From Parcubacteria group bacterium Licking1014_17 (GTDB lineage Bacteria; Patescibacteriota; Minisyncoccia; 2-02-FULL-40-12; IGHO2-01-FULL-4-A), in assembly GCA_007376485.1 (NCBI GenBank), contig VMGJ01000001.1:41788-105787 (forward strand): a stretch of 64,000 bases of DNA, read 5' to 3'. The notes under the pieces are model-generated. The model was not told where the DNA came from. It did not search any database and saw only the letters and a list, made by a program, of their open reading frames with translations. The position numbers were made by a program, and so were the translations under genes. Shown piece after piece: positions 20,254 through 39,956 of this stretch; position 1 is the stretch's first letter, and each line of letters begins with the position of its first letter.

Positions 20254-22860
20254 ATGAAAAATGCCAATTTGGCAAGAATCACTGCGGGGAAGCAGTTTTT
20301 CGGGTTAGGGAAAAAACTCGGGCTGTTTTTGTTTGTAATTTTTTCCGTTTGGATTTTATTTTTTGTTGTCGGGAAAAATGTAGCCGCGGATATTGCTTAT
20401 AGCTGCACCACCAAAGCTTCTGGCAATTGGGACGACCCCAATATCTGGAGCGGTTGTAATCCGACTTCTGGTTATCCGCAAACGAACGACACGGTTACGA
20501 TTGACGGCAATAACCAGGTGACATTAAATGTTCCCTCAGCTACCATCGCCGGACTTTCTTTCAGGGATACGGGATCCTTGGTTCATAAAAACGGAAACTC
20601 GCTGGCAATTAGCGGCTCGGTCGCGCTAAGCCAGCCCATAAGCGGAAATGACGTGTTTAATCAATGGCAGATAAATGATGGTTCGGCGATTGCCGTCGGG
20701 CAGATTTCTTTGGGCGGAATCGGTGCCGGCAAACTTGGCAGTAAGATTATCATTACTTCCGGAACCTTGACTGCCAAGAGCGGCATCGCTTTCCTGTGTA
20801 ACGGGCTAAATTACGAAAATTGCGTTCTTGATATGTCCGGCGGCGCGGGACGCGTTAACGTGAAAGGTCCCTTAGGTGGAATTGAAAATGCGACATTAGT
20901 GGCTGGATCAGAAAGCACAATCAGTTTCATTGATGATTCAGCAGACATGGACATTTATATGTCATGGGGCAGCGGCAGTTTTAATAATATTGAGATTAAC
21001 AGCTCCGATAAAAACGTTTATTTGGGCGAGGACATAACGCCTTTGAATGTCTTAGGAAATTTAACGGTATCAAGCGGGGTGTTTAAGCAAAACGGATATA
21101 ATGTCGAGGGCAATAATGGCAAAACACTTGAGGTAAAGAACGCCGGAACCTACGTTATAGAAGGCAATGCAACATTTCCCCCGGGTTTTGGCGCTTATTC
21201 TTTCGATGAAACCAGCACCGTGGTGTACGCGCAGAATGTAAATACGGCCATTTCGGCTCAAAACTACGGCAATGTTACGATAGAACCGGATCAGCCGGCT
21301 GATAGCGGAAGCATTGTTTTCACAATTGACCAGGGCAAGATTGTTATGGCCGGTGGCTTAGCGATAGAAACAGGAATCGCAGCCAAACCGATCACGGTTG
21401 ATGCGAATAAGAACGAAGTTCTTCTGGATATCGGAATCGGAGGCGTAATGATAGCGCAAAATGCCGAATTAATAGCCAATGGCAAAAATTTTCTCGAAAA
21501 CGACGGACCGTGGATAAACGAAGGAACATTCACTCACAACAACAACGCGGTTTATTTCGGCGGCGACAAATCAGATGCATATAAATTCATTCCGGGCAAA
21601 AGTTCGTTTTACAATCTTTTTATTGTCGGCAAGAGCATTTGGGACCTGAATAGCAACGATTTAAATGTGGAGAATTTGTTGAAGGTGGACAATGGCATAC
21701 TTTCCGGCACCGGAAACGTTGAAGTTAATGGCAATGTTGATTGCGCTTTTTCCTGCGCCGGTTCAATAAACATGACCGGCGGCAATTTTACGGTTAGGGC
21801 GCCGAAGGATGTTAATTTCGGCACCATTGGCGGTTCCGCTGACTGGCTGTTTAATAATCTCACTTTTAATAATTCTGATTCATCCGAACATACAGTAACC
21901 GCAAGCGCCGGCGGAACAGGAGAAATCAAAATCAGCGGCGTATTGACCGTTGGCGACGCCGATGATATAGCTAAAACTGTTTTTGACGCGAGTAACCGGA
22001 CTTGGGAATTAAGCGGAGGAAAAACGCCGTTTGATATTGTTGCCGGTTCTTTCAAGTCAAACACCTCAACATTCAAATACACCGCGGCAGAAGATGCCAC
22101 CATAACGGCTGAAAGCTATTATAATCTTCAGATTATGCCGGGAGAAGAAAGCACTCATACGATTGCCGAGGGCGCGCTGGCGGTGAGCAGCAATCTTGAT
22201 ATTGGAGACAAGGGAGCCGGCACGGTGACGGCGGACGCGAATAATCCGACCATAGACATTGACGGCAATTTTTCAATCGCCGAAGATTCCACTTTTATCG
22301 CGCCCGGAAAAACGGTTCTTTCAATCGCCAAGAATTTTTCAAACAAAGGAATATTCACCAACAGCGGTGGGATGGTGAGTTTTGACGGTGACAAAGACAG
22401 CGTAATCAGCGGTGACAAAACGGCTTTTTATAGCTTATCAATTACGACGCCGGGCAAGAAAATGAAATTCAGCGCCGGCCAAACATTTAATATAGGAGGG
22501 GATTTCACCGTTACCGGTTCGGTAAGCGGCAGTATTTATATTTCATCCGATATAGAAGGCTCAAAATGGTTTATTAACAAACAAGGCAAAGATAACATAA
22601 CTTTTGCCGATATTAAAGATTCCGGATGCGACGAGAAAAGCGGGGATATCGCATGCGGAGAAACATCCATAAACAGCAGTAATAATGATTTCTGCTGGAA
22701 GTTCGGTTCCGGTTTAAGAATAACATCCTACCCAAACAACGCATCCAAATCGGTTATTCCGATGGCCAGCCCAGCCGGCAAAGCTTCCTATGCCGGTACC
22801 AGTACTTACACCAACCAACCCTTGCCGTCGTTAAGACCGTTACCGCCAATCCGCAGATAA
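20254..22860 (+). CDS. Exported beta-helix-type surface protein, paralogue of the giant adhesin passenger
   Basis: N-terminal TM/signal, SGNWDDPNIW start, G/N/T-rich repeats; collinear with part of 22939-31227. Start set at ATG 20254. Confidence 0.8.
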   Translation: MKNANLARITAGKQFFGLGKKLGLFLFVIFSVWILFFVVGKNVAADIAYSCTTKASGNWDDPNIWSGCNPTSGYPQTNDTVTIDGNNQVTLNVPSATIAGLSFRDTGSLVHKNGNSLAISGSVALSQPISGNDVFNQWQINDGSAIAVGQISLGGIGAGKLGSKIIITSGTLTAKSGIAFLCNGLNYENCVLDMSGGAGRVNVKGPLGGIENATLVAGSESTISFIDDSADMDIYMSWGSGSFNNIEINSSDKNVYLGEDITPLNVLGNLTVSSGVFKQNGYNVEGNNGKTLEVKNAGTYVIEGNATFPPGFGAYSFDETSTVVYAQNVNTAISAQNYGNVTIEPDQPADSGSIVFTIDQGKIVMAGGLAIETGIAAKPITVDANKNEVLLDIGIGGVMIAQNAELIANGKNFLENDGPWINEGTFTHNNNAVYFGGDKSDAYKFIPGKSSFYNLFIVGKSIWDLNSNDLNVENLLKVDNGILSGTGNVEVNGNVDCAFSCAGSINMTGGNFTVRAPKDVNFGTIGGSADWLFNNLTFNNSDSSEHTVTASAGGTGEIKISGVLTVGDADDIAKTVFDASNRTWELSGGKTPFDIVAGSFKSNTSTFKYTAAEDATITAESYYNLQIMPGEESTHTIAEGALAVSSNLDIGDKGAGTVTADANNPTIDIDGNFSIAEDSTFIAPGKTVLSIAKNFSNKGIFTNSGGMVSFDGDKDSVISGDKTAFYSLSITTPGKKMKFSAGQTFNIGGDFTVTGSVSGSIYISSDIEGSKWFINKQGKDNITFADIKDSGCDEKSGDIACGETSINSSNNDFCWKFGSGLRITSYPNNASKSVIPMASPAGKASYAGTSTYTNQPLPSLRPLPPIRR

Positions 22861-22938
22861 CAATTAAATAGATTTCCCCACTTCTCAACAATCCGCGGTT
22901 TAACTTCCCCGCGGTTTTGTTAAAATATACAGGTAACA

Positions 22939-25900
22939 ATGAAAAGGATTGATTTAAAGAAGATCATCCATACTGGTCAGTTTTTTGCCGTGAAAAAGAT
23001 TTTCGCAACAAAAAGAACTCTCAAGCTGATTTTTGCCGCTGCCATAACAGCTACCGTCATATTTATTGTCATTTTCTCCTTTGTTAATGCCGGTCTTTTC
23101 AACTTCTATCCTCAAACCTGCCTTGGCGACTGGGAATACGCCGAAAACGCTTCCGGCAAACCCGACCTTCCTCCCGACGCCACTACCGAGAAATTTGATA
23201 AGAACAATTCCGCCTTCTTTTCCGGCGGTTACCGCAAGATATTCTGTGGCAACTTCAGAAGCAATGATGAATCCGGAGATAAAATCTTCCAGAAAGCAAA
23301 ATTGAGGTTGTCGTGGACACTCGTGCCGGACATCAACTCTGCGGTGCCTGTCATCGACCAATCCGAGTTTCAAAAAAATATACTGGATTATAGCGGGGAC
23401 GAAAAGATTATCGTGGTTCCCGATGAAGAAAAATCCGCTCCCGAAAAACAAGAGAATACGGTTTTACCTTCACCCGATGTAAGTTCATCAGCCGAAGAAA
23501 AAACACTGGAGCCGGTTCCGTCAGAATCACCCAGCCCTCAATCCGAATCGATTCCACCGACCGAGTCACCGCAATCTCCGGCGGAAGAGAATACCGCCCA
23601 AGAAAACGCTGATGTCGGCGAGCCGAGCAGTTTTAATGGAACATCTTTATTTAAAATGGGGCTTCTTGGCGTTTTCAGGACAGCGCTTACAGAGAATATC
23701 GGATCACTTCTGGGGTTAATAATGGAAATTAACAACAACAGCAGTTCCAGCTTGGAGGAAACGCTAACTCCTACAGAGCCCTCGGTTTTCATGCCCGAAA
23801 TAAGTATGGAGACGACTTCTGAAAAAGTTGAAACAAGTTCTACGCCCGCGAGCATTGCCGCCGGCGACGGCACGGCCTCAAAATCGGAATCCCCTCTGGA
23901 AAAAGAAATAATACCGCCAAAATCTTTGGATGATTTTCTTGAAATACTTTACAGCGTTGACGGCAAAAACTGGGAATCCATCGGCAATGTAAATCTTGAC
24001 AGTTTCAATAACGCCGAATTTGAGGTGCCTATTATTTCATGGAACGAACTGGCGAATCTCCAAATCAGAATCGGCGGGACGGGGCTGACGGACAGCGTGA
24101 GCGGAGTGTATTTGGACGGGATGTGGCTGGAAGTCAGTTATAGCGACAGTCAAGACGAGGTTGTTAGCGAGGATATAATGAGGGGATTGCCGAAAGTTCA
24201 GGTCAAAGACTCGGACGTTTTCAAATCAAAGAAAAAAGATTTTCGCTTTAACGAAGACGTGAAGTTTGAAATTAATCTTGGAAAAACGGCTTCCGGGAGC
24301 GTTGATGAAAACACGAAACCGCCAGCAACGCCTGAACCGTCGTCGCTTCTCAAAAATTCTTATAAAAATATTTTGGGCGCCGAGAGCGCCTTAGCCGCCG
24401 GCAGGATTGTTGAAGCCAGAGTATACAGCCCGACCGGCAAGCTGACAAATATAAAACCGTATATCAAGCAAGATACGGGGACTGAAACCGCGCAAATCTT
24501 TTTTTCGCCGCCCGGGCGAGCATACAAATCGGGCAAATACAAACTGGTCGTTGAGATTCTTCAGGATGACCGGGTAGTTGTGGCGGAACACGATTTTACC
24601 TGGGGTGTCCTTGCTTTGAACGCCAATAAGTCCATCTATATACCGGGCGAGTCGGCTTATCTTCAGTTCGCTTCGTTGAGCAATATAGGGCACACTTTGT
24701 GCGACAGCAATCTTGAGCTCATTATCACTCCGCCAAAAGGGCCAGAGTGGGTATTAAGCGTAGAGGACGGCGATATAAAAAGGAGCGACACCTGCGGACC
24801 CAATAATTATACCGACAAACCGGATTACTACGCGTATTACACGCCCGAATACACGGGCGCTTACGGACTCACACTGAAAAATTTGGATAACGGGAATGAA
24901 ATAACCGACTCCATTCAAGCCGACGGTTTGGTTGATATGGATGTGGAACGCGTCGGTGCGACGCGCATTAATCCGTTTTTGGGACAGAACTATTTTACGA
25001 CCATTAATATCAAAGCAGGTCAGCCTTTTGAGGGAGAAATTGTGGATACGCTCCCAAAGGGATTTGTGGTTATGGGCAGTTCCGATTACATTGTCCGCAA
25101 AACACCGACGGGCGACGTAGAAGTAGTATGGAGAAAAATTTTATTGCGTGGGGACACGGCTATCCTGACCTATGAATATGACCCGGCTGATATCTCGCCG
25201 GAGCTGTTTCTTCTGGGTCCGTTAAAATTTATCGCGAAGTCGGATCCGCTATCGTCTTTTTTTCAGGAAGCGCGCCAGTGGCAACTGGCGTCGGATTATT
25301 CCTGCGTCGCAAAAGCGACCGGCGCCTGGAGTGCCAGCGGCACTTGGACAACATGTAATTCAACCACACCCCAACCGACGGATACGGTTACAATCGCCAC
25401 AACATATGTTGTGACATTGGATACTTCGGCTACCATCGCCGGTCTTAGCCTTGCAAACACAGCTCAACTGAATCATCCCGGCACAAATGCCCTAACTGTG
25501 AATGGTTCAGTTGCCCTTACACCGCCGCCGACAGTCAATTTTAATCAATGGAACATTGCGGGAGGTACCGCGACCGTAACCGGCGCGATAACGTGGGGTG
25601 CCGGTGGCAGTTCAAAGGTATCTAAGATTTTAATTACAACCGGAACATTAAATGCCAGTGGCGGATTATCATTCGGCTGCCTTAATTACCCGGCAAGCTG
25701 CCTTATTGATATGTCGGGGGGCGCGGGCACTTTAAATTTAAGCGGCGCCATAACAAGCGTAACCAAAGGGCAACTAACGGCCGGGACCACCAGCACTTTC
25801 GTATACGCTGACCAGAGTGCCGACCAAACAATACAAATGGCTTGGGGCGGCGGCAGTTACAATAATCTTGGAATTAATAACGGCGCTAAGGTGGCAACCG

Positions 25901-28900
25901 TAGCCGAAAATATAACGACATCAAACGTGAGCGGTAGTATAACAGTTACCAGTGGCACTTTCAACGCCAGTAATGTTACGATTGCGGGCAACAGCGGCAA
26001 AACATTTGAGGTTGATAACGGAGCCACCTTCACGATGAGCGGCAATACAACTTTTCCGACCGGCTTTTCCACGTTTACTTTTCAGAGCACGAGCACCACA
26101 AAATACGGACAGAGTGTGGATTCGGATATTTCGGCGCAGAGCTATGGTTATCTGATAGTCAGTCCTGTTGCCGACCCCTCCAGCCACAGCGCTGATTTTT
26201 ATCTTGCTTCGGGAACCATTTCCACCGCCAGTGCTTTTATTGTCGCTTTGGGTTCCGCTGCCACTTCAGTTTTTGTTAATGCCGACACGAACGACCCGAC
26301 TCTTGATATAAACAGTTATTTGTCCATAGGCGCGAGCACGACTTTTCAGGCTTCAAATTCCGGAACTTTCACCATCAACGGCAGTTTGTTTAACGCCGGC
26401 ACGTTTACCCACAATAGCGGCACCGTCACTTTTGACAGCACCGCGAGCGGCAGGGGGATAAATATGAACGGCAGTTCACTATATAACTTGACGATTAACG
26501 GTTCCGGCGGCGAATGGTCGTCGCTCACAAATATGCTGACAGTAGCCAATGATTTAATCTTGACCGCCGGAACTTTAAACAATGCTTCCGGCAGTGCGGA
26601 CATTGAAGTCAACGGAAACGTTTCCTGTAACGGCACCTGCGGCACAGTCAGTTTGACAGCCGGAAAGTTTACCCAGAAAGTTGCCGCCGACAAAAATTTC
26701 GGAACGTCAGTGGCTGTTGCCACTGCCTGGACTTTCAATGCCTTGCATTTCACCAACAGCAGCGGCACCGACAGGATAATCACAACCAGTACCACCGGCA
26801 CCGGAACCATCACCGTAACAGCTTCCATGTCCATCGGCGTTTTCAGCGCCACCAACAAAGCCACGCTTGACGCCGACCACAGAACCTGGATTTTAAGCGG
26901 AAGTAATGAAGCCGATGCACACATTCCTCTTTCCATTGACGCCACCAAAGGAGCTCTAACCGCTCACGCATCGATTTTCCGCTACACCGGCAGTTCCACT
27001 ACCACAATCGAGGCGGCAACCTACTACAATCTTGAAGTAAAACCCGGTGGTGCCGTGACCCATACTTTCAAAGCGGGGACGACGACGGCTTACACTTTAA
27101 CCGCGGGAGACGGATCCAATAGCGGAACAATAACCACCAATACCAATAGCACGACCCTTGATATTGGTTTTGGAGGAGTTTCTATAGCTGCCTATGGCAC
27201 TCTCGTCGCCCATGCCAGCAATGCTTTTACTGTTGAAGGTTCATGGACAAACGCCGGCACTTTTACTCATAGTAGCGGCACGGTAACTTTTGACGGAACG
27301 ACGGTAGCTTCAATTCCAGTAACAACCGGCGGCAGTTCTTTCAATAATTTAATGATAGCGGGAGCGGGTAACTTCGCATTGCAGGATTCAACGACAATCG
27401 CCGGCGATTTGAAAGTAAACAGCGGCACCTTTTCTGGTGGCGTTGTCACGACTGTTAACGGCGACGTAACTTGTGTTACCACCTGCGGCACGATAAACTA
27501 TGCCAGCGGTATTTTTATACAAAACGTTGCCGGAAACAAAGCCTTCGGCACTACCGCCGGTACTGCTACGTGGACATTTAATGTTCTTCACTTTGCCGCC
27601 AGTGACGGTACTGACAGGGTGATTACCGCCAGTTCGGGTGGCACCGGAACCATCACCGTCACTGCCTCCATGTCCATCGGCGTATTCAGCGCCACTAACA
27701 AAGCTACGCTTGATGCCGGCAACAGAACATGGATTTTAAGCGGAAGCGACTCAAACGGTGATTCTCCCCTATCTATAGACGCCACTAAGGGCGCCTTAAC
27801 CGCTAACACGTCAACTTTCCGTTATACCGGCAGTTCAGCCACTACGATTGAGGCGGCTACTTATTACAATCTTGAAGTAAAACCCGGCGGCGCCGTGACC
27901 CATACTTTCAAGGCGGGGACAACAGGAGCAAATCATTTACTTACTATTGGCGACGGAGCTAATAGCGGAGTCGTAACAGCAAATACCAACAGTACTATTT
28001 TGGATGTAGGCGACGGCACAAGCGGCAGCGGCGTTTCAATCGCCGCCAGCGCCACGCTGACGGCCAACGCCAGCAACGGTTTCACGGTTTACGGCTCATG
28101 GACAAACGCCGGCACGTTTACCCACAGCAACGGCACGGTTACCTTTGACGGGGATGATGACTTAATTAGCTTTACCCTTACTCCGGCAAGCAGTCCATTC
28201 TACAATCTGACCGTAAATAATACGGGAGGCGCAATATGGACATTACAAAGCGGTCAGACTCTTATTGTAGCTAACGATTTATATATTAACGGCGGGACAC
28301 TGAACGACGATAGCGCTACTGCCATGGTTTTTAACGGAAACGTAACCTGTTCGGTGACCTGCGGTATTATCAACACCTCTGCCAATGTTATCCAAAACGT
28401 TGCCGCCAATAAAGTCTTCGGCACTACTGCCGGCACCGCCGCCTGGACTTTCAAAGCCCTTCATTTTGCCAACAGCAATGGAACCGACAGATTAATCACT
28501 ACCAGTTCGGGTGGCTCCGGAACCATCACCGTCACTGCCTCCATGTCCATTGGCGTTTTTAGCGCCACCAATAAAGCTACGCTTGATGCCGGCAATAGAA
28601 CTTGGATTTTAAGCGGGAGCGACTCAAACAGTGATCCCCCCTTAACTATTGACGCCTCCAAAGGGGTTTTGACTGCCAATACATCTACATTCAGATTTAC
28701 CGGTAGTTCCGCCACCACAATCGAACAAGCGACTTATTACAACCTTGAAGTAAAACCCGGCGGCGCCGTGACTCATACTTTCAAAGCGGGAACAACAGCG
28801 GCTTACGGGCTAACCGCTGGAGATGGAGTCAATAGCGGAGTCATAACGGCCAACACCAACAGCACAATCCTTGATATAGGTTTTGGGGGAGTTTCCATAG

Positions 28901-31227: not shown

Positions 31228-31230
31228 CTT

Positions 31231-33588
31231 ATGTTTATCAGGGATGATTTTATAAATAGTTTTGATTATATTCTCTACAGGATAATCAGGTTCGGCATTC
31301 TGTTCGTGCCGTTTATTTCTCTGGTTGTAATTAGGAATATTTATTCGCCGTTTGAATTCAGTAAAGGGATTGTTTTCCGGGTAATCACCGAAATAATTTT
31401 TTTCATTTATGTTTATCTGGCGTTTAAATATCCGAATCTCCGCCCGTCTTTTTTTAAAAAAAGGCCGGATAAATATGTGCTGGCCGGTTTGGTCGCCTTA
31501 GTGGTTCTCGTAGTATGGCATTTTATTTCCGGATTATTCAGTTCAAGCTGGACTCTTAGTTTTTGGGGCTATATAGAGAGGATGGGCGGCATTTTCGCGT
31601 TGCTTCACTATATCGCTTTTTTTGGAGTTGCCGCTTCAATACTGCGCACGAGGAAAGAGTGGGAAAATCTTATCTGGGCTTCGGTGGCGGCGGCGCTGAT
31701 TTCATCAGTTTACGGCATTCTGCAAAAATATTCCGTAAGCGCGGTTGTCGGCGCGGACCAGAGGTTCAGAATTTTCGGGACCGTCGGCAACCCGGCTATA
31801 TTCGCCGGCTATCTGCTTTTTAATTTCTATTTTGTTTTATACCTGTCTTCGCGTCAGGAATCGAAAATACGCAGATTCCTTCTGTATTTCGCCGCATTCA
31901 TATTCGCATCCGCGATAATTTTGTCAGCCTCCCGGGGAGCGGCGGCGGCTCTAATTGTAAGTTTTGTTTTTTTGATTTTTTATATTCTGTATAAAAAAAG
32001 CGCCAGTCCATACGGAAAAAAGAAGAGCTTGATTATCGCGGCGCTCGCGGTAGTCATTATTGCCACAATTTTTTCCGGGATTGTATTAACTCGTTCCGGG
32101 TCCGGGCTCGGATATTTTTCCAGACTGACCGATTTCAGTGTGAAGAGCGGCTCCATAAATTCGCGGTTGCTTGTCTGGGGCATGGCGCTAAAAGGGATAG
32201 CCGAAAAACCGGTTTTGGGCTGGGGTCCCGAAAATTTTATAGCCGTTTATTACAAGAAATACGACCCTAAAATGTATGAGTCGCCGGCTCAAGATTATTC
32301 TTCTGACAGGGCTCATAATATTATTTTGGATTGGCTGGCTGCCGTCGGTGTTGTGGGCTTGCTGTCTTATCTGCTGATTTGGTACTGCGCGATAAGGAAA
32401 ATTGGCGCCCGGGATTACAATGATATGCCGTATTTTTCTCGAGGAGCGCTTTATGCCGCCGCCGTCGCGTATTTTGTTTTTAATTGCACTTTTTTTGACA
32501 CGACTAACACTTATCTGATGGTTATTTTTTTTATGGGCTTGGCTTTTCTTTGGGACGATTATGTGGCAGACGGAGTGGCGACAAAAGTGCCGGAAGGTAA
32601 TACCCCGGTCAACACCGTAGTCGGCGTATTGGCTCTGGTTTCCTGTTCTATTTTAATTATCTGGGCGAATATCCTGCCGTTTCTGTCAAACTATTATACA
32701 AATATGAATAAGAGGGCAAACAGCAGGGGGGATTTCGGGGAAGCGTTTAAGTATCTTGAACTCGCGAGAAACACCGCCACATGGACGGAAACCGACGCCG
32801 TGAGGAATTTAACTTCAGAACTGATAACCGCCCTGAACACGCAAGCGGATTATTTTAAAAACGAAGATAACAGAAAATCTTTCGGGGTTATCGCGCAGGA
32901 TCTTCGCGACGAGATGGAAAAACGTCCGGAGGACGCCGCTTCGTACACTTTTTTATTTAAAATGGAACAAATACTCGCGGCAAATTTTGGAAAGCAGATT
33001 AAACCCGTTGAAGATACCATCTGGACAGCAACCGCCATATTTCCCAAATTGATTCCGCTTTATTATGAACTTTATTACAGCGCCTTGATACGAAATGATT
33101 TTGAAGGAGCCACGAATGTAGCGAACAAAATATTGGAAATCAGACAGGACTTGCCCTTTGGAAAGTTTTGGCTCGCGTATGTCATAACTCGGAAGGATTT
33201 AAACGATAAAAATAGGACAAAACTGCGGAGTTCTTTAAATACCTTGGGCGACAGCTTTGACAGTTCGTTGTTTAACGCAGGCGATAATTACGGCAGTATA
33301 AAACCGTTGCTTGACGAGTTGAGTTATAAATTAAGGAAGACGGGTTATTATCTGGAGATGAGAGATTTGCATTTAATGATAGCAAAATATAAGCCTTCAA
33401 GTTATGTTTATGCGAGCTACGCGAGTTATATGATGCGTGACTTAAAATCAGCCATGAAATACGCCGACGAAGCGCTCGCTCTTGACAATAGCCTAATGAG
33501 CAGTAAGGACTATGAAACATTAGCCGACATTTATGGGGCATTGGGTGATAGAAAAAAACAAGGAGAAGCATACATAAAGATTCAATAA
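31231..33588 (+). CDS. O-antigen ligase/Wzy_C family membrane protein with C-terminal helical (TPR-like) region
   Basis: RIFGTVGNP, SASRGA, SRLLVW..KPVLGWGPENF and DRAHN motifs. Confidence 0.88.
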   Translation: MFIRDDFINSFDYILYRIIRFGILFVPFISLVVIRNIYSPFEFSKGIVFRVITEIIFFIYVYLAFKYPNLRPSFFKKRPDKYVLAGLVALVVLVVWHFISGLFSSSWTLSFWGYIERMGGIFALLHYIAFFGVAASILRTRKEWENLIWASVAAALISSVYGILQKYSVSAVVGADQRFRIFGTVGNPAIFAGYLLFNFYFVLYLSSRQESKIRRFLLYFAAFIFASAIILSASRGAAAALIVSFVFLIFYILYKKSASPYGKKKSLIIAALAVVIIATIFSGIVLTRSGSGLGYFSRLTDFSVKSGSINSRLLVWGMALKGIAEKPVLGWGPENFIAVYYKKYDPKMYESPAQDYSSDRAHNIILDWLAAVGVVGLLSYLLIWYCAIRKIGARDYNDMPYFSRGALYAAAVAYFVFNCTFFDTTNTYLMVIFFMGLAFLWDDYVADGVATKVPEGNTPVNTVVGVLALVSCSILIIWANILPFLSNYYTNMNKRANSRGDFGEAFKYLELARNTATWTETDAVRNLTSELITALNTQADYFKNEDNRKSFGVIAQDLRDEMEKRPEDAASYTFLFKMEQILAANFGKQIKPVEDTIWTATAIFPKLIPLYYELYYSALIRNDFEGATNVANKILEIRQDLPFGKFWLAYVITRKDLNDKNRTKLRSSLNTLGDSFDSSLFNAGDNYGSIKPLLDELSYKLRKTGYYLEMRDLHLMIAKYKPSSYVYASYASYMMRDLKSAMKYADEALALDNSLMSSKDYETLADIYGALGDRKKQGEAYIKIQ

Positions 33589-33668
33589 TCTACCTGTGGA
33601 TAATGCTATTTGCGCTTGTTTGCAGGGGGTTTATAATTAAATGAGTTTATTAATTACCTACACATACC

Positions 33669-34433
33669 ATGAGTAAAAAGCCGTCGTTTTTCTCGGCGAG
33701 TGCCGAATTGAAGGTTGTGGTATTCGTTGCCGTGTTTGTCTTCTTTTCTTGGATTTTTATTGATAACAGAATCTATTTTAATTTTTTTAAATCGTTGGAC
33801 GCCAACGCGGCCACAAGCGGAACGGCCAGCCAAAATATGAGTATTGATGTGGGTGTGGGGCTTACTTTCGTGAAATACAGCAGTGTTGCATGGCGCAATG
33901 ATTCGGAGACTCCCACGAGTACTATAACTTCCGGCACTCCTCTGCATTCTACGCAAGCCTTGCAGGTTACGACTAACGACAATTACACAATATCGGTCGG
34001 TCGAAAAAGGCAAAGCCCCAATACGACACTCGCTTCGGCCAGCGATGTGACTATTCATATAGAAGATGCGAGTACAGGTATTGATGTTTTTAACGGGCTG
34101 GCAAATTGCACTACTGCTACAAGCACGACAGCCTACTGGCCTGTCACGGGAGCTGTATCAGTCGGTATTGGCTTCAGCAACTGGAAAACCCAGATTGCCG
34201 GCGATAAAAGCTCTTGCTGGGGAACGGGGACTGTAGATAATGAATCTACCCCCTCCACAAATAGATATGCCGCGCTTCAAGCGTCAGCCAGCGCCAGTAC
34301 GTTTTTGTCAACTACTAATCATCCCTTGGGGGTTTCGTATTTTTCCGTCGTGTACCGACTAGACGTAACGGCTAGCCAAAGAGCCACCAACTATTCAGGC
34401 ACGGTTAATTATACGGCGACTACCCAACCCTGA
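33669..34433 (+). CDS. Exported WxL/pilin-like subunit
   Basis: Signal/TM, beta-rich body, C-terminal YSGTVNYTATTQP. Confidence 0.7.
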   Translation: MSKKPSFFSASAELKVVVFVAVFVFFSWIFIDNRIYFNFFKSLDANAATSGTASQNMSIDVGVGLTFVKYSSVAWRNDSETPTSTITSGTPLHSTQALQVTTNDNYTISVGRKRQSPNTTLASASDVTIHIEDASTGIDVFNGLANCTTATSTTAYWPVTGAVSVGIGFSNWKTQIAGDKSSCWGTGTVDNESTPSTNRYAALQASASASTFLSTTNHPLGVSYFSVVYRLDVTASQRATNYSGTVNYTATTQP

Positions 34434-34475
34434 TCGATTTTGCGCCGCAACGGCAACTAATTTAAATGATTAATT

Positions 34476-35405
34476 ATGATGAAAAGATTTAACAAGAAAA
34501 TAATAATAACACTGGTGATTATTTTGGGTGTTTTTATGTTATCTCTTGGTTTTGTTTGGGCGATAGGCGTGGGGATATCCATTTCTCCATTGAAATATAA
34601 ATATAGTGTCGACCCAGGCACGGTTATAGATGATGTGATTAATGTCGGCAATCCGAATGCAGGTGATCTTAGAGTGAAGGTTGAGTTTCAGGATTTTATG
34701 GTTACCGAGGGTAATAATATCAAATGGATTCCAAACGACATCGAGAACCCCCATAAAATGGTTGACTGGATTGATATTGATACGGAGCCGTTTACGGTGG
34801 CCCCGGGGAAACAGGTAGCCGTGCCCTTTAAAATAAATGTCCCGAAAAACGCCACTCCGGGAGGAAAATACGCGGCAATATTTTTCAGCGAGGCGGATAA
34901 AGGTGGCGGAAATTTATTAGGCGCGATCGCACGTGTCGGGTCACTGATTATTATGAATGTTAATGGTGACGTCAAGCAAACCGGGCAGCTGGTTGATTTC
35001 ACCGGGCCCACCATAGCGTGGAGCGGACCGGTCAATTTTGTTCTTAGTATGATGAACGTGGGCACCACGCATTTTGAGGTAAAGCCGGTGGTCACGATAA
35101 ATAATTTTTTCTGGCAAAGCGCAAAGATATTGCCGGAGTCAAAATTTATTTATCCCAATGTCAAGAGAGATATTCCGATTAAATGGGAGAAAAGCAATCC
35201 GTTCGGATTGTACAGCGCCAAAGTTTCCGTAACCGATGGGGAGGGGACTGTTTTTGAGAAAACAAAATGGTTTGTCGCAATTCCGGCTACATATGCCATA
35301 ATAATACTGGCCGTTGTTTTGGTGTTATGGTTTGGAATCAGGTTCTTTAAGCATACGTTCAAAATTTCCAAGATTATTACCAGAAAAAGCAGATCGGCAG
35401 CCTGA
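34476..35405 (+). CDS. DUF916-like (WxL-interacting / chaperone-like) membrane-anchored protein
   Basis: ISPLKY..DPG..INVGNPN, VPKNATPGGKYAAIFF, NVGTTH; C-terminal TM with basic tail. Confidence 0.75.
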   Translation: MMKRFNKKIIITLVIILGVFMLSLGFVWAIGVGISISPLKYKYSVDPGTVIDDVINVGNPNAGDLRVKVEFQDFMVTEGNNIKWIPNDIENPHKMVDWIDIDTEPFTVAPGKQVAVPFKINVPKNATPGGKYAAIFFSEADKGGGNLLGAIARVGSLIIMNVNGDVKQTGQLVDFTGPTIAWSGPVNFVLSMMNVGTTHFEVKPVVTINNFFWQSAKILPESKFIYPNVKRDIPIKWEKSNPFGLYSAKVSVTDGEGTVFEKTKWFVAIPATYAIIILAVVLVLWFGIRFFKHTFKISKIITRKSRSAA

Positions 35406-35424
35406 TATTAATTATTATTTAATA

Positions 35425-36303
35425 ATGCTTAGAAACTTTCTAGTTATTGTTGGCGTAGCTTTGGTTACGTTGTTTTTTCCCTTTTTTGTCCATGCTTACC
35501 AGGGAGGAATTCTTTTGGATCCCGTAAAAATCGAACTTGACGTTTTTGCGGGACAGGCGGCATCTAGAGAGATAACAATTACGAATCAAAATCCGTTTGC
35601 GGTGACGATCAGTCCGGAAGTGATGAATTTTAAAGTTAGTGAGAACAGCGAAATTCACTGGTATATCGGCGCGATTTCAGACCCATTGCGGAGTTCGGCC
35701 TGGCTGGAGGTAGACGAAAAATCCTTTGTCCTTAAATCCGGCGAAGCAAAAAGAGTCGGAGTCAGCGTGGCAATACCCGCCGATACCCAACCGGGCGGTA
35801 GATATGCGACCGTTTTTTTCAACAGCAAGCCCGTTGATGCTCAAAATAAAAACGCGGACGTAAGAGCCGGCACTATGGTTATCATCAATGTACCCGGCGC
35901 CATCAGTAAAGCCGGGAATATTGTCGGTTTTAATTCGCCTTTATTCGTCATCGGCGGGCCGCTTGATTTCATCGTAAAATTCGCGAACACCGGCAAGACG
36001 CATTACAACACCAAAGCGACCCTGAAAATATCCAATTTATTCTGGAATGTCGCCAATATTTCAAGCGACCAAAAATTTTTATATCCGGACGTCATACGCG
36101 AGATTCCGATCAAATGGAACACGGCTTCCCTTTTTGGCATCTACACCGCGCAGCTGTCCGTTACCGACGGCCAGGGCGTCGTACATACGGCAGAGAAACA
36201 TTTTGTAGGCGTTTCCATCAAATATTTGGCGCTGCTCATTGCCTTAGGATTTATTGCCTGGTTTGGGAGAAAAAAACTTCTGGCCAGAAAAAGTAGCGCG
36301 TAA
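35425..36303 (+). CDS. Second DUF916-like membrane-anchored protein
   Basis: Paralogue of the upstream gene (IPADTQPGGRYATVFF, NTGKTH, KFLYPDVIREIPIKW). Start moved to ATG 35425. Confidence 0.75.
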   Translation: MLRNFLVIVGVALVTLFFPFFVHAYQGGILLDPVKIELDVFAGQAASREITITNQNPFAVTISPEVMNFKVSENSEIHWYIGAISDPLRSSAWLEVDEKSFVLKSGEAKRVGVSVAIPADTQPGGRYATVFFNSKPVDAQNKNADVRAGTMVIINVPGAISKAGNIVGFNSPLFVIGGPLDFIVKFANTGKTHYNTKATLKISNLFWNVANISSDQKFLYPDVIREIPIKWNTASLFGIYTAQLSVTDGQGVVHTAEKHFVGVSIKYLALLIALGFIAWFGRKKLLARKSSA

Positions 36304-36319
36304 TTTATTTCTCTAACTA

Positions 36320-36964
36320 ATGGTTGATAAGTTTTCACACAAGATATTTTTTGTGTTCCTGTTTGCAGCCCTGGTTTTTATTTGTATAACAAAAGTATAC
36401 GCGGCAGATCCAGTAGACCAAAACGTTACTATAACCGTAGGGCAAACCGGTATTGTATATTTGAATTTTACTTTTAGCCCCCAAGGCAGATGGACCGGCG
36501 GAGGAAATAATGACGCGTCAAATGTTGTCGTTGAGGTAAGACCCGTAGACGGCAATAAGGACAGTATAATTTTTAGCGAGGAAGTGACTACCGACAACAG
36601 CGGCCAATATTCATCCTTGCTTCTGGATAATGTAAGTCCGGGAACATATGACGTGAGCGCCAAGGGTTGGGCAACTCTAAGAAAAAAGGAGGTAACCGTA
36701 ATATTGGCGGAGGGCAATAACACCATTGATTTTACCGACACGGGCGCCGATAAAGCCCTCTCCGGAGATTTGGATTCAACGACCCGGGTCGGAAGCGCCG
36801 AAAGCGGTGATAACGAAATCAGCGCCGCCGATTATTCAACTTTGATCGGAAATTACAATACGGTGCAGGACAGGTATGATTTGGATAAATATACGGACCA
36901 GTTAATCGCCGGCCCGGATTATTCAATTCTTGTATCGAATTATAGCCAAGAAGGCGACCAGTGA
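36320..36964 (+). CDS. Exported protein with C-terminal dockerin-like domain
   Basis: Signal peptide; duplicated GDLD..NEISAADYSTLIGNY / DLDK..IAGPDYSILVSNY Ca-loop-helix motif. Confidence 0.72.
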   Translation: MVDKFSHKIFFVFLFAALVFICITKVYAADPVDQNVTITVGQTGIVYLNFTFSPQGRWTGGGNNDASNVVVEVRPVDGNKDSIIFSEEVTTDNSGQYSSLLLDNVSPGTYDVSAKGWATLRKKEVTVILAEGNNTIDFTDTGADKALSGDLDSTTRVGSAESGDNEISAADYSTLIGNYNTVQDRYDLDKYTDQLIAGPDYSILVSNYSQEGDQ

Positions 36965-36977
36965 TGTTTTATAAAAA

Positions 36978-37658
36978 ATGAATACGCGCTTTTCAGTCAA
37001 AATTATTTTTTTTACCGCCGTTCTGGCATTAGTTATTATTTTATTGGCATTCAACAACAAGGAGAGCCGAAATAACGGTAATAATTTGATAACCGTCTAT
37101 GGAAATGTGTTAAATGCCCGGGATAATCTTCCCCTTGGCAGTGTTACTGTCCAATCGGGCGAGTCCAGAAGCGTAACTGATTATCAGGGCAAATTTGTCT
37201 TACTGAATGTCCCCCGAGACGGTGAAATAAGGATTGAAAGCGGAAACTTATATGAAGAAGTTATTATTCCTATTAATGGGCGATCGAACATTACCGTTTA
37301 TCTGGATGGAGATTTGCTTGGAATTTTTCGGGATATTGAGCGATATGAAAACAACAGGCAATATTCAAAAATCTATGACCTATTTACGCCTGATTTAAAA
37401 AAACATTACACGCTGGATGCTTACTTGAAAAAAAAGAATAGCTGGCGCGATAACATTACGGAGGGAAAAAATTATGACGGGTTCAAAATGGAATTTCTGC
37501 GCCATACCGTCAAAGGCGGCAATTCTTCATCTATTATAACGGTTACTACTAAATATTCCTGGCTTAAGGGCGAGGAAACTAAATATATTCACGCAATTGA
37601 TGTAAAATTAATATGGGACGGCAACATCTGGGAGTTGGGCAATGATTTGATCTGGTAA
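36978..37658 (+). CDS. Membrane-anchored protein with carboxypeptidase-regulatory-like domain and NTF2-like C-terminus
   Basis: TVYGNVLNA..PLGSVTV..TDYQGKFVL; YSKIYDLF..LIWDGNIWEL. Confidence 0.65.
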   Translation: MNTRFSVKIIFFTAVLALVIILLAFNNKESRNNGNNLITVYGNVLNARDNLPLGSVTVQSGESRSVTDYQGKFVLLNVPRDGEIRIESGNLYEEVIIPINGRSNITVYLDGDLLGIFRDIERYENNRQYSKIYDLFTPDLKKHYTLDAYLKKKNSWRDNITEGKNYDGFKMEFLRHTVKGGNSSSIITVTTKYSWLKGEETKYIHAIDVKLIWDGNIWELGNDLIW

Positions 37659-39815
37659 ATGAATTTTAAAGGCAAAAATATTTTTTACTACGCAAGCCGG
37701 TTGTTTTTCGGGTTCTTTGCGCTCGCCGGCATTTTTTATTTTTTATCGTGTGATGCCAGGGCGGCTGTCACAATGGACATGACCGCCTCCGCCGGCGTCA
37801 AATATGTCGGTACCACGTTTAATGTCAGTGTGAGGGTAAAGTTGGATAGTCAGAATATTGATACCGTTTCGTTGAGAAATCTGAACTTTGACCACGATAT
37901 TTTGGAAATAACCGGAACGTCCATCCAGAGCTTGTTTTCATCCCAAGCAACATTAAGAAATGTTACCGACAACACCGCGGGGACAAAAAGGCTCGATATC
38001 GGCAAATTGCCGCTAACCGATGATTACACCAATTCATCGGCAGCTACATTTGCAATTTTAACCTTTAAGGTGAAGAACGTTGGTACCGGAACGACAACCT
38101 TAACAATAGATTATGACGGTAGCCCGGGAAAATCCGGAGTTTTTTTGGCAGGAACAAATTATTTGGCGTCGGTGCTGCCGCTTGATGTTTCGCTTGGTTT
38201 GGACGACACGGGACCGGCTTTCAGCAATTGTACGCCCGTGGCTAACGTCGTGAACCAGCAGGTTACCGCCAACATAGTTTGCGACGTAACCGACACGGAG
38301 ACTGGAGTTTATCTGGGAGGTACGACTCTGACTGTCAACGGCATCACTTATTCCAATAGCGGAGCTAACCAGTACACAAGCGCCGAGATTGCCAACGGTT
38401 ACCAGTTGACCGTGAATCCCGAAGATAATCTGCCCTACAACACGTCCATAACGGTCAGCGGATCCGCGCAGGATAGCGCCTATGATGACGGTCCGGTACT
38501 GGCGCGAAATACCGGCACACTGGCGGAATACGCGTTTACCACCGAGGATGACGATGACGCGCCGACTATTTATAATAAAAGCCCCGACTCCGGCGCCACA
38601 AGTATTTCAGTGTCAACTAATGTCAGTTTTGGCATAAAAGACATTGCTGTTCCGGGAGACTATAATGGTCTTGGCGTTGATATTGATAGTATTCAAGTGA
38701 TTATATCCGCCGATAACTGGGGAACTGTAACCTACACTCACGGCGGCGAAAAACAATTCAGCCATTCCGGCAATCAATACGATTATACCATCACGATCAA
38801 CCCTTCGCCGGATTTTCCCCAAAATACCACCGTTACCGTAAGTATTGCCGCTGACGACCTGCACAGTTCACCTAATTCAGTATCCACCTCTTATTCGTTT
38901 ACCACGGCGGATACCTCTCTGCCGACATGTTCCAATTTTATACCGGCGGAGAATAAAGCGGATATCGAGCCAACCGACACTATCTCTTTTGATTGTTCCG
39001 ATTCCGGGGCAGGAATTAATATAGATACCATAAGCGTGATCGTTAATAAATCCACCTATACAAAATCAAAGAGCGGTTTTTCGTATACTGGCGACTCATC
39101 AAAATACAATATAGTCATAACTCCGCCGGGCGGATTTGCTTATGATTACGCTTTTGAGGTGATAATCAACGGCAGAGATATGAAAAGCAACTCAATAACG
39201 GAGACTAGCTACGGGTTGGCTACAAGAATACAAGGGGGAGGCGGCGGAGGCGGCGGAGGAGGAGGGGGAGGGGGAGGAGGAAATCAATGCCCGACCTGCC
39301 AAGTATGCCCGGCGCAACCATCGCCGGAATTTTCCAATGGGCCTTTGCCGACAGAAAATCCTTACTCAACTCCAAAACCCGGGAAAACACCCAATCCGGC
39401 CATTTGTCCTTCAATAGCACCCGAAGTTCCTTATCAAATACCGTTTGCCCCGACAATTGAAGATATGCAATCTGTCGCGTTGCAAAAAGTCAACGGGACC
39501 GATGTTCAAGGCATCACCATTTATCAAATATCCGGACCGATGATTACATTGGAAGGAACCGCGAAACCGCAGGGTTTGGTTGGCCTCCAAATGGAACCGG
39601 GACCGATTGTGGTCCAAACAATCGCCGACAACAAAGGTGAATGGAAAGTAACCATATCCAATGTTCTGGGTCCCGCCGAAAATCTGCTATACGCGATCTC
39701 CCGCAACCCAATTAACGGCGCCACGGAAAAAAAATTCCTGATTATCCTTCATAACACCTATAAAGGCATAGATGCTTATCTCCGGGCGCAAAAGATGAGA
39801 ACGCAACTTTGGTAG
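37659..39815 (+). CDS. Cohesin-like plus Ig-like repeat surface protein; TM anchor encoded just beyond the TAG
   Basis: TFNVSVRV..LNFDHDILEI..FAILTFKVKNVGTG (cohesin-like), three Ig-like repeats, poly-Gly/Pro linker. Confidence 0.75.
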   Translation: MNFKGKNIFYYASRLFFGFFALAGIFYFLSCDARAAVTMDMTASAGVKYVGTTFNVSVRVKLDSQNIDTVSLRNLNFDHDILEITGTSIQSLFSSQATLRNVTDNTAGTKRLDIGKLPLTDDYTNSSAATFAILTFKVKNVGTGTTTLTIDYDGSPGKSGVFLAGTNYLASVLPLDVSLGLDDTGPAFSNCTPVANVVNQQVTANIVCDVTDTETGVYLGGTTLTVNGITYSNSGANQYTSAEIANGYQLTVNPEDNLPYNTSITVSGSAQDSAYDDGPVLARNTGTLAEYAFTTEDDDDAPTIYNKSPDSGATSISVSTNVSFGIKDIAVPGDYNGLGVDIDSIQVIISADNWGTVTYTHGGEKQFSHSGNQYDYTITINPSPDFPQNTTVTVSIAADDLHSSPNSVSTSYSFTTADTSLPTCSNFIPAENKADIEPTDTISFDCSDSGAGINIDTISVIVNKSTYTKSKSGFSYTGDSSKYNIVITPPGGFAYDYAFEVIINGRDMKSNSITETSYGLATRIQGGGGGGGGGGGGGGGGNQCPTCQVCPAQPSPEFSNGPLPTENPYSTPKPGKTPNPAICPSIAPEVPYQIPFAPTIEDMQSVALQKVNGTDVQGITIYQISGPMITLEGTAKPQGLVGLQMEPGPIVVQTIADNKGEWKVTISNVLGPAENLLYAISRNPINGATEKKFLIILHNTYKGIDAYLRAQKMRTQLW

Positions 39816-39956
39816 CTGTTGATTCTGGCGCTGTTGATTATTTTCATGCTTGTCCTTAGGGCGCTACACAAATCTCTTCATCCGGAAGAATACGATAAAA
39901 ACAAGAGGGAATTGAAATGATGTATTAATTTGATAGTTGATGTATGATAGGTTTCT

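Follow-up and report, generated by a model that had tools for sequence, protein, structure and literature searches.

Pili that assemble without an usher, with the help of membrane-anchored chaperones, have been described in two 2026 preprints, one on the CPR bacterium Ca. Mycosynbacter amalyticus (Pam; PMC13278184) and one on Enterococcus (WxL/Elr; 10.64898/2026.10.17.759780). The Pam system uses two chaperones with C-terminal membrane helices, donor-strand exchange, an acceptor-only tip, a two-domain major pilin with an internal linker as donor, and PamR, a one-chain RbmA-like terminator that supplies a donor strand from its N terminus and is tied to the membrane by a helix of its own (PMC13278184). 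The Elr system, called confined to Bacillota, has a single-domain pilin with an N-terminal donor, a large tip adhesin whose N-terminal stretch is acidic and whose C terminus forms the acceptor, a DUF916-type membrane chaperone, a donor-only terminator, and an anchor consisting of LPxTG and sortase A (10.64898/2026.10.17.759780). The main text of the Pam preprint (PMC13278184) mentions neither dockerin, cohesin, WxL, nor DUF916, and that of the Elr preprint (10.64898/2026.10.17.759780) mentions neither CPR nor cohesin.

The cluster described here (20254..39920) lies in a 64,000-nucleotide stretch of DNA, referred to as the window, from a 790-kb, 99.75% complete CPR genome; all features discussed are on the forward strand, and the open reading frames (ORFs) are all where the initial annotation had placed them. 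It probably encodes a Pam/WxL-type pilus built by donor-strand exchange with the help of chaperones, and a dockerin-cohesin pair is predicted to fix the base of this pilus to the membrane. [quoted passage not shown] With Elr it shares the pilin, tip, and terminator features, its chaperones have a weak family link to PF06030, and it differs in its predicted anchor, which is a dockerin, a cohesin, and a membrane helix. The initial annotation did not recognize a described system, but Pam and Elr already describe the core, and an usher-less, membrane-chaperone donor-strand pilus is thus in print; the base with its dockerin-cohesin pair is the new part, and no description of such a pilus anchor was found among the top-listed matches in the open-access literature. 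That the system is usher-less is borne out by a search of the genome with PF00577, which had no match (the E. coli control was positive); an NCBIfam search gave nothing useful.

Predicted pilin, giant tip protein, and membrane chaperones

The predicted shaft pilin (33669..34433) is a single-domain protein of 254 aa with a signal peptide, an N-terminal donor strand (33810..33860; family pattern V-T-L-S-V-T-V), and an incomplete Ig-like acceptor. In its structure model (pLDDT 80), mature residues 1 to 17 are unpaired, and the top fold matches are mostly donor-strand filaments (Z up to 6.9, all under 8). Among these are the chaperone-usher pili CFA/I and Csu and the filaments of TasA/TLP-1 (Z 5 to 6.9), in which an incomplete Ig fold is likewise completed by a neighbor's N-terminal strand, although the window's genome differs from chaperone-usher systems in having no usher and membrane-bound chaperones. 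Pfam WxL matches none of 49 pilins of the family, a difference from Elr, and the only WxL link is an Atlas feature neighbor with 22% WxL members; pilin profiles had no match in the PDB, with the Pam structures (PDB 25PZ/25QA) lying outside that comparison. Relatives of the pilin include two-domain pilins (340 to 390 and ∼500 aa) whose donor strand is internal, as in PamB and PamA, and the window pilin matches two-domain pilins of Pam architecture with an HH probability of 98.4. Pam-like gene layouts occur among the relatives, two of them near ATP synthase, and no two-domain pilin was found in this genome.

The predicted tip adhesin (22939..31227; 2,762 aa) has a signal peptide, an acidic low-complexity stretch (residues 155 to 335), four Ser/Thr/Gly-rich repeats of ∼290 aa, and a C-terminal pilin acceptor domain (30667..31224) that by alignment starts at strand A and lacks a donor strand. 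Residues 2582 to 2762 are 42% identical to pilin residues 72 to 254 (E 9e-31), and all ten motifs quoted in the initial annotation for this resemblance are present. The pilin-type domain is C-terminal in 127 of 127 matches (62 proteins are 185 to 270 aa long and 51 are over 270 aa). Relatives of the giant protein (1.8 to 2.9 kaa) are encoded upstream of pilin-chaperone genes, and the pilin last-strand motif, judged by eye, ends the C terminus in all 16 of those listed; by a profile test, a pilin domain was recognized at the C terminus in only 4 of 20 giant genes at dockerin loci. The donor-strand fold neighbors, the free N-terminal strand of the pilin, and the acceptor-only C terminus of the giant protein together favor the roles of shaft and tip first assigned to these two proteins.

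Upstream of the giant gene, 20254..22860 codes for a secreted 868-aa paralog of the giant's repeat region, with 39% identity to giant residues 774 to 1502 and up to 40% to residues 2145 to 2577. Its tail has no significant likeness to the pilin domain (shuffle P 0.04 to 0.87), and the idea that it is a remnant acceptor was rejected on that test; because no pilin acceptor domain was detected, the 868-aa protein is probably not joined to the fiber by strand exchange. Between the giant and pilin genes, and not mentioned in the initial annotation, is a gene for an O-antigen-ligase-like membrane protein with a helical C-terminal region (31231..33588; Wzy_C E 7e-21), which is also present in a paralogous locus of the same genome (on contig C10) and in related loci L049, L051, and L052. 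Its product is possibly a pilin O-glycosyltransferase, and extra density is reported on a Ser of PamA (PMC13278184).

The two membrane-anchored chaperones (34476..35405 and 35425..36303) each have a C-terminal membrane helix and are 33% identical to each other (E 7e-61), as expected for the paralogous, anchored DUF916-like proteins first proposed. Chaperone 1 is a two-domain protein, WxLIP/DUF916-like and PamC/D-like, with a PF06030 match (E 1.4e-4) that is below the curated cut-off. PF06030 is matched by 16 of 39 family members (best 7e-9) and PF11797 (DUF3324) by none of the 39, and the only PDB matches to the chaperone profile are to WxLIP1 and are weak (E 0.03). This weak but repeated PF06030 link suggests that the two preprints, each calling its own system lineage-restricted, describe relatives. 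The best named homolog, 51% identical, is from Ca. Yanofskybacteria, and the 80 homolog records are mostly titled as Patescibacteria groups; the genome scan for relatives used the chaperone alignment as its query, and a phylum-wide sample of 401 genomes has the family in 205.

Dockerin protein and cohesin scaffold

The predicted base (terminator) subunit (36320..36964; 214 aa) contains a donor strand (36404..36448, from the complex model), an Ig-like X module, and a dockerin with two EF-hand-like repeats (36761..36946), and has neither an acceptor domain nor a membrane helix. A Pfam search with the protein itself gave no match. The dockerin assignment made initially agrees with a profile from related-locus dockerins, which matches at E 6e-15 and included this protein's own overlapping locus copy, and with its Atlas feature and structure neighbors, which are dockerin clusters (TM 0.52 to 0.67). 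PDB sequence searches with this protein and the cohesin protein returned chance or Gly-linker matches only.

Modeled in complex with the pilin, the 214-aa protein scores 0.72 (best of three controls, 0.16), above a mark reached by 116 of 157 solved pairs and 2 of 215 mismatched pairs; runs share at least 86% of contacts and the partner pLDDT is at least 74. The modeled interface involves residues 29 to 43 of the 214-aa protein alone, lying against strand A of the pilin and its C-terminal strand, antiparallel to the latter. This terminator strand, as modeled, has the same antiparallel geometry as that reported for the N-terminal donor of ElrD and the last strand of its acceptor (10.64898/2026.10.17.759780), and the high score may reflect likeness to solved donor-strand complexes. 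With a profile of the pilin donor strand, 22 of 28 dockerin proteins score at least 5, compared with 6 of 51 cohesin proteins and 4 of 98 chaperones; the 214-aa protein scores 8.7. The profile missed the C10 dockerin protein (−2.2), and also the strands of the pilins themselves, since these fell outside the region scanned. The dockerin protein is predicted, from the profile and the model, to be a donor-only base subunit that ends the fiber. SEML1_0315, an essential dockerin protein of S. epibionticum, was considered as a terminator and rejected, being a 927-aa stand-alone gene without pilus neighbors. Between the dockerin and cohesin genes, 36978..37658 codes for a 226-aa protein with a weak CarboxypepD-like domain and, at its N terminus, a hydrophobic helix; it scores 6.8 with the donor-strand profile and has no homolog in the surveyed loci.

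The last gene of the cluster (37659..39815) codes for a 718-aa scaffold of cohesin and Ig (Big_5) domains. The cohesin domain (37764..38204; residues 36 to 182), recognized as cohesin-like at the outset, passes the Pfam cut-off (24.7 versus 24.1 bits), and all 35 Foldseek matches listed are cohesin-containing entries (best E 1.4e-6, TM ∼0.7). In cellulosome anchoring, an X-dockerin is bound to a surface cohesin, as is CipA with SdbA/OlpB. The proteins here are arranged alike: one pairs an Ig-like X module with a dockerin at the C terminus, the other has its cohesin at the N terminus of a stalk that runs to a cell anchor, and some orthologs also bear SLH domains; however, the cargo is a predicted pilus base rather than an enzyme scaffold, and the anchor is a membrane helix.

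In the proposed mechanism, subunits would be exported via Sec and then held by the two membrane-anchored chaperones, as in Elr and Pam. The 2,762-aa protein, having an acceptor without a donor strand, would cap the tip; the 254-aa pilin, whose model shows an open groove and a donor strand left free, would polymerize head to tail; and the 214-aa protein, having a donor strand without a groove, would end growth by filling the pilin groove, as in the model that outscored its controls. Complex modeling covered this pilin-terminator pair alone, and the polymer, chaperone-pilin, and dockerin-cohesin contacts are proposals. The dockerin would engage the 718-aa protein's cohesin, probably by way of EF-hand loops loaded with calcium, a step suggested by conserved gene adjacency between proteins that both have the requisite folds, and in relatives the cohesin protein ends in a membrane helix. 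The likely job of the fiber is adhesion to cells or surfaces; the host attachment put forward in the initial annotation is a candidate role, against which stands that a WxL/DUF916 locus is nonessential in co-culture of the cultured Saccharibacterium S. epibionticum.

An in-frame TAG before the cohesin membrane helix

The cohesin ORF ends at a TAG (39813..39815), after which 34 in-frame codons (39813..39920, including the stop) contain a transmembrane helix and a charged tail, apparently the ancestral anchor. The initial annotation does not mention this stop; of the membrane tie that it proposed, both folds were found and the anchor is cut in the window's copy. The arrangement is the sole such case among 486 long ORFs. 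A membrane helix ends the protein in 5 of 5 closest orthologs and is present in 87 of 96 complete cohesin proteins versus 0 of 53 dockerin proteins, and the truncated 718-aa protein has no entry in the exact-sequence collection. No conserved programmed stop was seen in the cohesins: nine cohesin ORFs lack a membrane helix, and only a copy on C10, which has an in-frame TAG and an intact ortholog in L049, is clearly interrupted mid-gene. Amber recoding was rejected, as 105 of the 487 long ORFs, that of GroEL among them, stop at TAG, and the 38 tRNAs include none with a CUA anticodon. Because the TAG removes the helix, fibers of the window's copy would likely be shed, or else be held through rare read-through or by the second locus's intact cohesin.

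The strongest alternative, though a rather unlikely one, is that the window's locus is decaying or mis-assembled, the TAG being a loss-of-function or a consensus error and this copy making no anchored fiber. The TAG falls in the locus's only cohesin, there is a second such lesion on C10, the upstream 868-aa paralog has no acceptor domain, and TAG is an ordinary stop in this genome with no amber suppressor among its tRNAs. However, none of the seven other genes, from the giant tip through 36978, is disrupted, and both lesions are in cohesins with nothing comparable among the long ORFs, so that the pattern looks more like selective anchor loss than general decay. A decayed copy would in any case fit the reading preferred for the family, a donor-strand pilus with a dockerin-cohesin base.

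Gene neighborhoods and the proposed pilus anchor

A synteny survey, suggested in the initial annotation, found the gene order conserved, with chaperone, dockerin, and cohesin genes adjacent in 45 of 158 related loci, a biased sample whose relatedness means that counts overstate independence. A cohesin without a dockerin occurs in none of the 158, and at loci without a dockerin the gene after the chaperone often has its own membrane helix (33 versus 19 without), as PamR does (PMC13278184). The second locus, on C10, repeats the design with a dockerin that passes Pfam Dockerin_1, and the genome's three cohesins are all within the two pilus loci. The closest orthologs of the 214-aa and 718-aa proteins are encoded side by side in all 3 of the loci that extend downstream.

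These neighborhoods bear on a further alternative, which we consider improbable, that the pilus is real and held by its chaperones or a sortase, and that the dockerin-cohesin pair came to lie next to it as a separate cassette for surface display. The pair's closest relatives have a different N-terminal motif, and a pilin or chaperone match is present in 0 of their 8 loci (with short flanks); the genome also has a third dockerin protein, on C7, and three sortases, all away from the locus. Against this stand the recurrent chaperone-dockerin-cohesin order, the enrichment of a donor-like strand on dockerin proteins, the modeled strand insertion, and the lack of an LPxTG-like signal in all eight cluster proteins checked (last 60 residues); the description of the system as sortase-less therefore holds for the locus but not for the genome. 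A short static platform of tip, one or few pilins, and chaperone, as earlier proposed for WxL clusters, would suit a single pilin gene for two chaperones and a pilus modeled here without a polymer, but is very improbable given that the pilin has both donor and acceptor and that ElrD (10.64898/2026.10.17.759780) and PamA/B (PMC13278184), of the same design, form long filaments.

Beyond the preferred reading of a pilus with a dockerin-cohesin base, a more speculative joint reading, tentative and doubtful as a whole, combines a plug-and-socket pilus base in CPR made of the cellulosome's dockerin-cohesin pair, amber stops as a release switch, and Pam and WxL as one family. If it is true, a donor-only dockerin subunit would end the fiber and dock noncovalently, probably with a need for calcium, into one of several cohesins at the membrane, and fibers would therefore be swappable between sockets or releasable; the genome's two cohesin amber stops would act as a switch for release, either selected or controlled by read-through; and the pili of Pam and WxL would form a homologous family across CPR and Bacillota, differing mainly in their anchor.

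On the preferred reading, the dockerin-cohesin pair, present in 45 of the 158 surveyed loci, would be a third anchoring solution; the published CPR model, Pam, has a one-chain anchor. The pair would offer a concrete role for noncellulosomal cohesins and dockerins and predicts detachable pili, and Pam pili are reported to be easily untethered (PMC13278184). It also bears on how CPR episymbionts hold on to their hosts.

A predicted pilus locus and its known relatives

The nine open reading frames at 20254-39815, which match the initial description, are predicted from sequence and structural models to form a donor-strand pilus of the Pam/WxL type with a dockerin-cohesin base, and it is the base for which no description was found in the open-access literature. 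An usher-less donor-strand pilus in CPR bacteria is not new, because Pam pili are published for a Saccharibacterium, and the initial reading, which knew of no such described system, is superseded on this point; the available text of PMC13278184 reports solved Pam pili with two-domain pilins, two membrane chaperones, and no usher, and predicts a one-chain, RbmA-like terminator. The main text of 10.64898/2026.10.17.759780 describes a WxL system, by its account confined to Bacillota, in which donor-strand exchange polymerizes WxL proteins, primed by a membrane-anchored DUF916 chaperone; it also predicts that the tip carries its acceptor at the C terminus and that an LPxTG protein with a donor strand only is the terminator. 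The predicted dockerin-cohesin base differs from both terminators. Term searches returned neither cohesin nor CPR in that main text, and none of dockerin, cohesin, or WxL in the available text of PMC13278184.

Relatives of the window pilin include two-domain proteins of 340 to 390 aa, and in these the linker matches the donor strand (probability 98.4). Six of 40 loci, judged by reading their layouts, combine pilins of ∼250 and ∼500 aa with a pair of chaperones and a gene for a membrane-helix protein, and two further loci adjoin ATP synthase; kinship with Pam is therefore likely.

The source genome (790 kb, 11 contigs, 99.75% complete) carries a second locus of the same design on contig C10, in regions L001:13983-16514 and L002:8617-14676, coding for an 843-aa tip-like protein, a ligase, a 244-aa pilin, one chaperone, a 651-aa dockerin-ended protein, and two cohesins, one intact with a membrane anchor and the other broken by a TAG at L002:14047-14049. 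The O-antigen-ligase-like gene (31231-33588 in the window) is present in both loci and a few close relatives and is a candidate pilin glycosyltransferase. The proposed absence of sortases holds within both loci, and none of eight cluster proteins checked has an LPxTG-like signal, but three sortase-family genes lie elsewhere in the genome (C5:25519, C7:14186, and C7:18028), as does a third dockerin-like protein (C7:65545-66441). Also on C10, a 548-aa protein (L001:5438-7084) without repeats or an acceptor domain shares 47% over 73 aa with part of the giant tip's N-terminal region, and the surroundings of the second locus include glycosyltransferase and methyltransferase genes.

Predicted pilin, tip, and chaperones

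The 254-aa predicted shaft pilin (33669-34433) matches the C-terminal 181 residues of the 2762-aa predicted tip (22939-31227) in a 187-column alignment (42% identity, E 9e-31), bearing out the resemblance first noted. A search profile made from six pilin domains matched 127 representatives, and in all 127 the domain is at the C terminus; they include 62 proteins of 185 to 270 aa and 51 of more than 270 aa, the longest having 2854 aa. An alternating N-terminal strand is common to the short pilin-domain proteins and absent from both tips of the source genome. As modeled by AlphaFold2 from 49 sequences (pLDDT 80), the mature pilin is not self-complete, since residues 1 to 17 are left without a pairing partner, a modeled free donor strand by which the predicted pilin would polymerize. 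None of the 49 alignment members matches Pfam WxL. Donor-strand filaments (TLP-1, CfaB/CfaE, Csu, and TasA; Z ≤6.9) make up most of the model's fold neighbors, and Foldseek gave no match of E <0.001, so that these neighbors are a lead and not a family assignment. The top match is TLP-1b (PDB 9ikk, Z 6.9), which we take to be an environmental fibril of unknown source and which is a candidate relative of CPR pili.

The proteins at 34476 and 35425, initially described as paralogous, membrane-anchored, and DUF916-like, are indeed paralogues (33%) with C-terminal hydrophobic helices and probably act as chaperones. The protein at 34476 matches PF06030 (DUF916) below the cut-off, and 16 of 39 chaperones of the family match it. 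The only PDB matches of the chaperone profile are to WxLIP1, a DUF916-type protein (E 0.03). The closest named relative lies on a contig of Ca. Yanofskybacteria. Among the best 80 of 144 relatives most come from Patescibacteria groups and some are assigned otherwise, which makes it very likely that the source genome is itself a CPR genome. Pilin-chaperone pairs on contigs assigned to Dehalococcoidales, Chloroflexota, and Nanoarchaeia (L114, L115, and L102) could mean either that the system extends outside CPR or that these contigs were wrongly binned.

The predicted dockerin-cohesin base

The 214-aa protein at 36320, the predicted terminator, has a signal peptide followed by a strand in register with the pilin donor strand and, beyond it, an Ig-like module and the dockerin that was first suggested. 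A profile of the donor strand, derived from 48 other pilins and scanned on proteins of the best 80 of 144 chaperone-relative loci, reaches a score of 5 or higher in 22 of the 28 dockerin proteins, compared with 6 of the 51 cohesin proteins and 4 of the 98 chaperones; it gives 8.7 for 36320 and 6.8 for the 226-aa protein at 36978, and does not pick out the dockerin protein of C10. When the donor-less pilin (residues 63 to 254) was modeled together with 36320 residues 29 to 141, the complex scored 0.72 against 0.16 for the best control, with at least 86% contact agreement between runs and partner pLDDT of at least 74, which supports terminator-pilin binding at the level of a model. A score of 0.72 was reached by 116 of the 157 solved pairs and by 2 of the 215 mismatched ones, figures that are only rough for the alignments used here. 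The modeled contact involves only 36320 residues 29 to 43, which have pilin strand A on one side and, running antiparallel to them, the C-terminal strand on the other, the same geometry as described for ElrD in the main text of 10.64898/2026.10.17.759780.

The cohesin first recognized in the 718-aa protein at 37659 spans residues 36 to 182 (model pLDDT 84, Foldseek E 1.4e-6) and scores above the Pfam threshold; of the 46 domains in the cohesin alignment, 37 match Pfam Cohesin. The 36320 dockerin would bind this cohesin, presumably with calcium dependence, in a base that we liken to cellulosome anchoring (CipA, SdbA/OlpB). Proteins P0152-P0160 are cohesin-Ig scaffold orthologues of about 1000 aa in which SLH domains (PF00395) are present as well, a resemblance to the anchoring proteins of cellulosomes. 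The closest 36320 homologues (47 to 56% identity over module and dockerin, the N-terminal motif mostly different) adjoin 37659 orthologues in all three loci having downstream sequence, which supports a cognate pair. No pilin or chaperone lies near them in eight loci with short flanks, an arrangement showing a cassette that would also work outside pilus loci. In the available text of 10.1101/2023.11.21.568195, dockerins belong to giant proteins of Omnitrophota and not to pili.

The 37659 reading frame stops at a TAG (39813-39815), and a hydrophobic helix continues in the same frame to 39920, an arrangement seen just once in 486 long ORFs. Its five closest orthologues (38 to 46% identity; four of 736 to 769 aa and one of 652 aa) all have a C-terminal membrane helix; one C10 cohesin is likewise broken by TAG, and its L049 orthologue is open at that site. 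TAG as a sense codon is rejected, as it is a normal stop in the source genome and no suppressor tRNA was found there. Given this and the orthologue helices, either this copy has lost its anchor, low-level read-through still yields it, or the assembly is in error here.

Recurrence and anchor types across CPR

Within the class, the pilin profile is matched in 34 of 301 genomes; within the phylum, the chaperone profile is matched in 205 of 401. We surveyed 160 loci (40 regions around pilin matches, with several in some genomes; the best 80 of 144 chaperone-relative loci; and 40 of the 205 chaperone-positive genomes, picked for high score and long contigs), or 158 after removal of two duplicates. 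Chaperone, dockerin, and cohesin are adjacent in that order in 45 of the 158, so the genes do co-occur in other genomes; in two the chaperone and dockerin have no cohesin next to them (one of these pairs is at a contig end), three have a dockerin elsewhere, 100 have neither, eight lack a chaperone call, and none has a cohesin without a dockerin. Because the surveyed loci are biased and related, these counts describe a recurring design and not a frequency. Most loci have two to four cohesins. Of the 96 cohesin proteins that are complete, 87 have a membrane helix, versus none of 53 dockerin proteins.

In 120 of these loci, the gene after the chaperone codes for a dockerin protein (36), a membrane-helix protein (33), or neither (19), with 5 cut, 22 uncalled, and 5 without a chaperone call. 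In one genome of the same family the version found is a single chain, with a donor-like strand, linker, Ig domain (32% identity to the end of 37659), and membrane helix, followed by the same tgt-like gene. Loci without dockerin or cohesin (L055, L059, L061, L066, L078, L086, and similar) code for a membrane protein of 1100 to 1230 aa directly 3' of the chaperone, often followed by a ∼2000-aa protein, which would be a third anchor type. In S. epibionticum, the available text of PMC10633639 annotates SEML1_0628-0625 as a giant-WxL-DUF916-Ig locus, with SEML1_0626-0628 non-essential in co-culture and insertions in SEML1_0625, the gene after the chaperone, favoring growth in two of three passages; SEML1_0625 is a candidate anchor.

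A Ser/Thr/Asn-rich N-terminal motif recurs in proteins ending in a pilin acceptor domain or a dockerin (P0012-P0018, P0023, P0048, P0051, and P0081; loci L171 and L173), with tail-fibre-like genes nearby (L001:7732, L171:8773, and L173:3378). Adhesion is the probable role of the fibre, and this motif may be a second strand-addition adaptor that joins fibres to tail-fibre-like adhesins.
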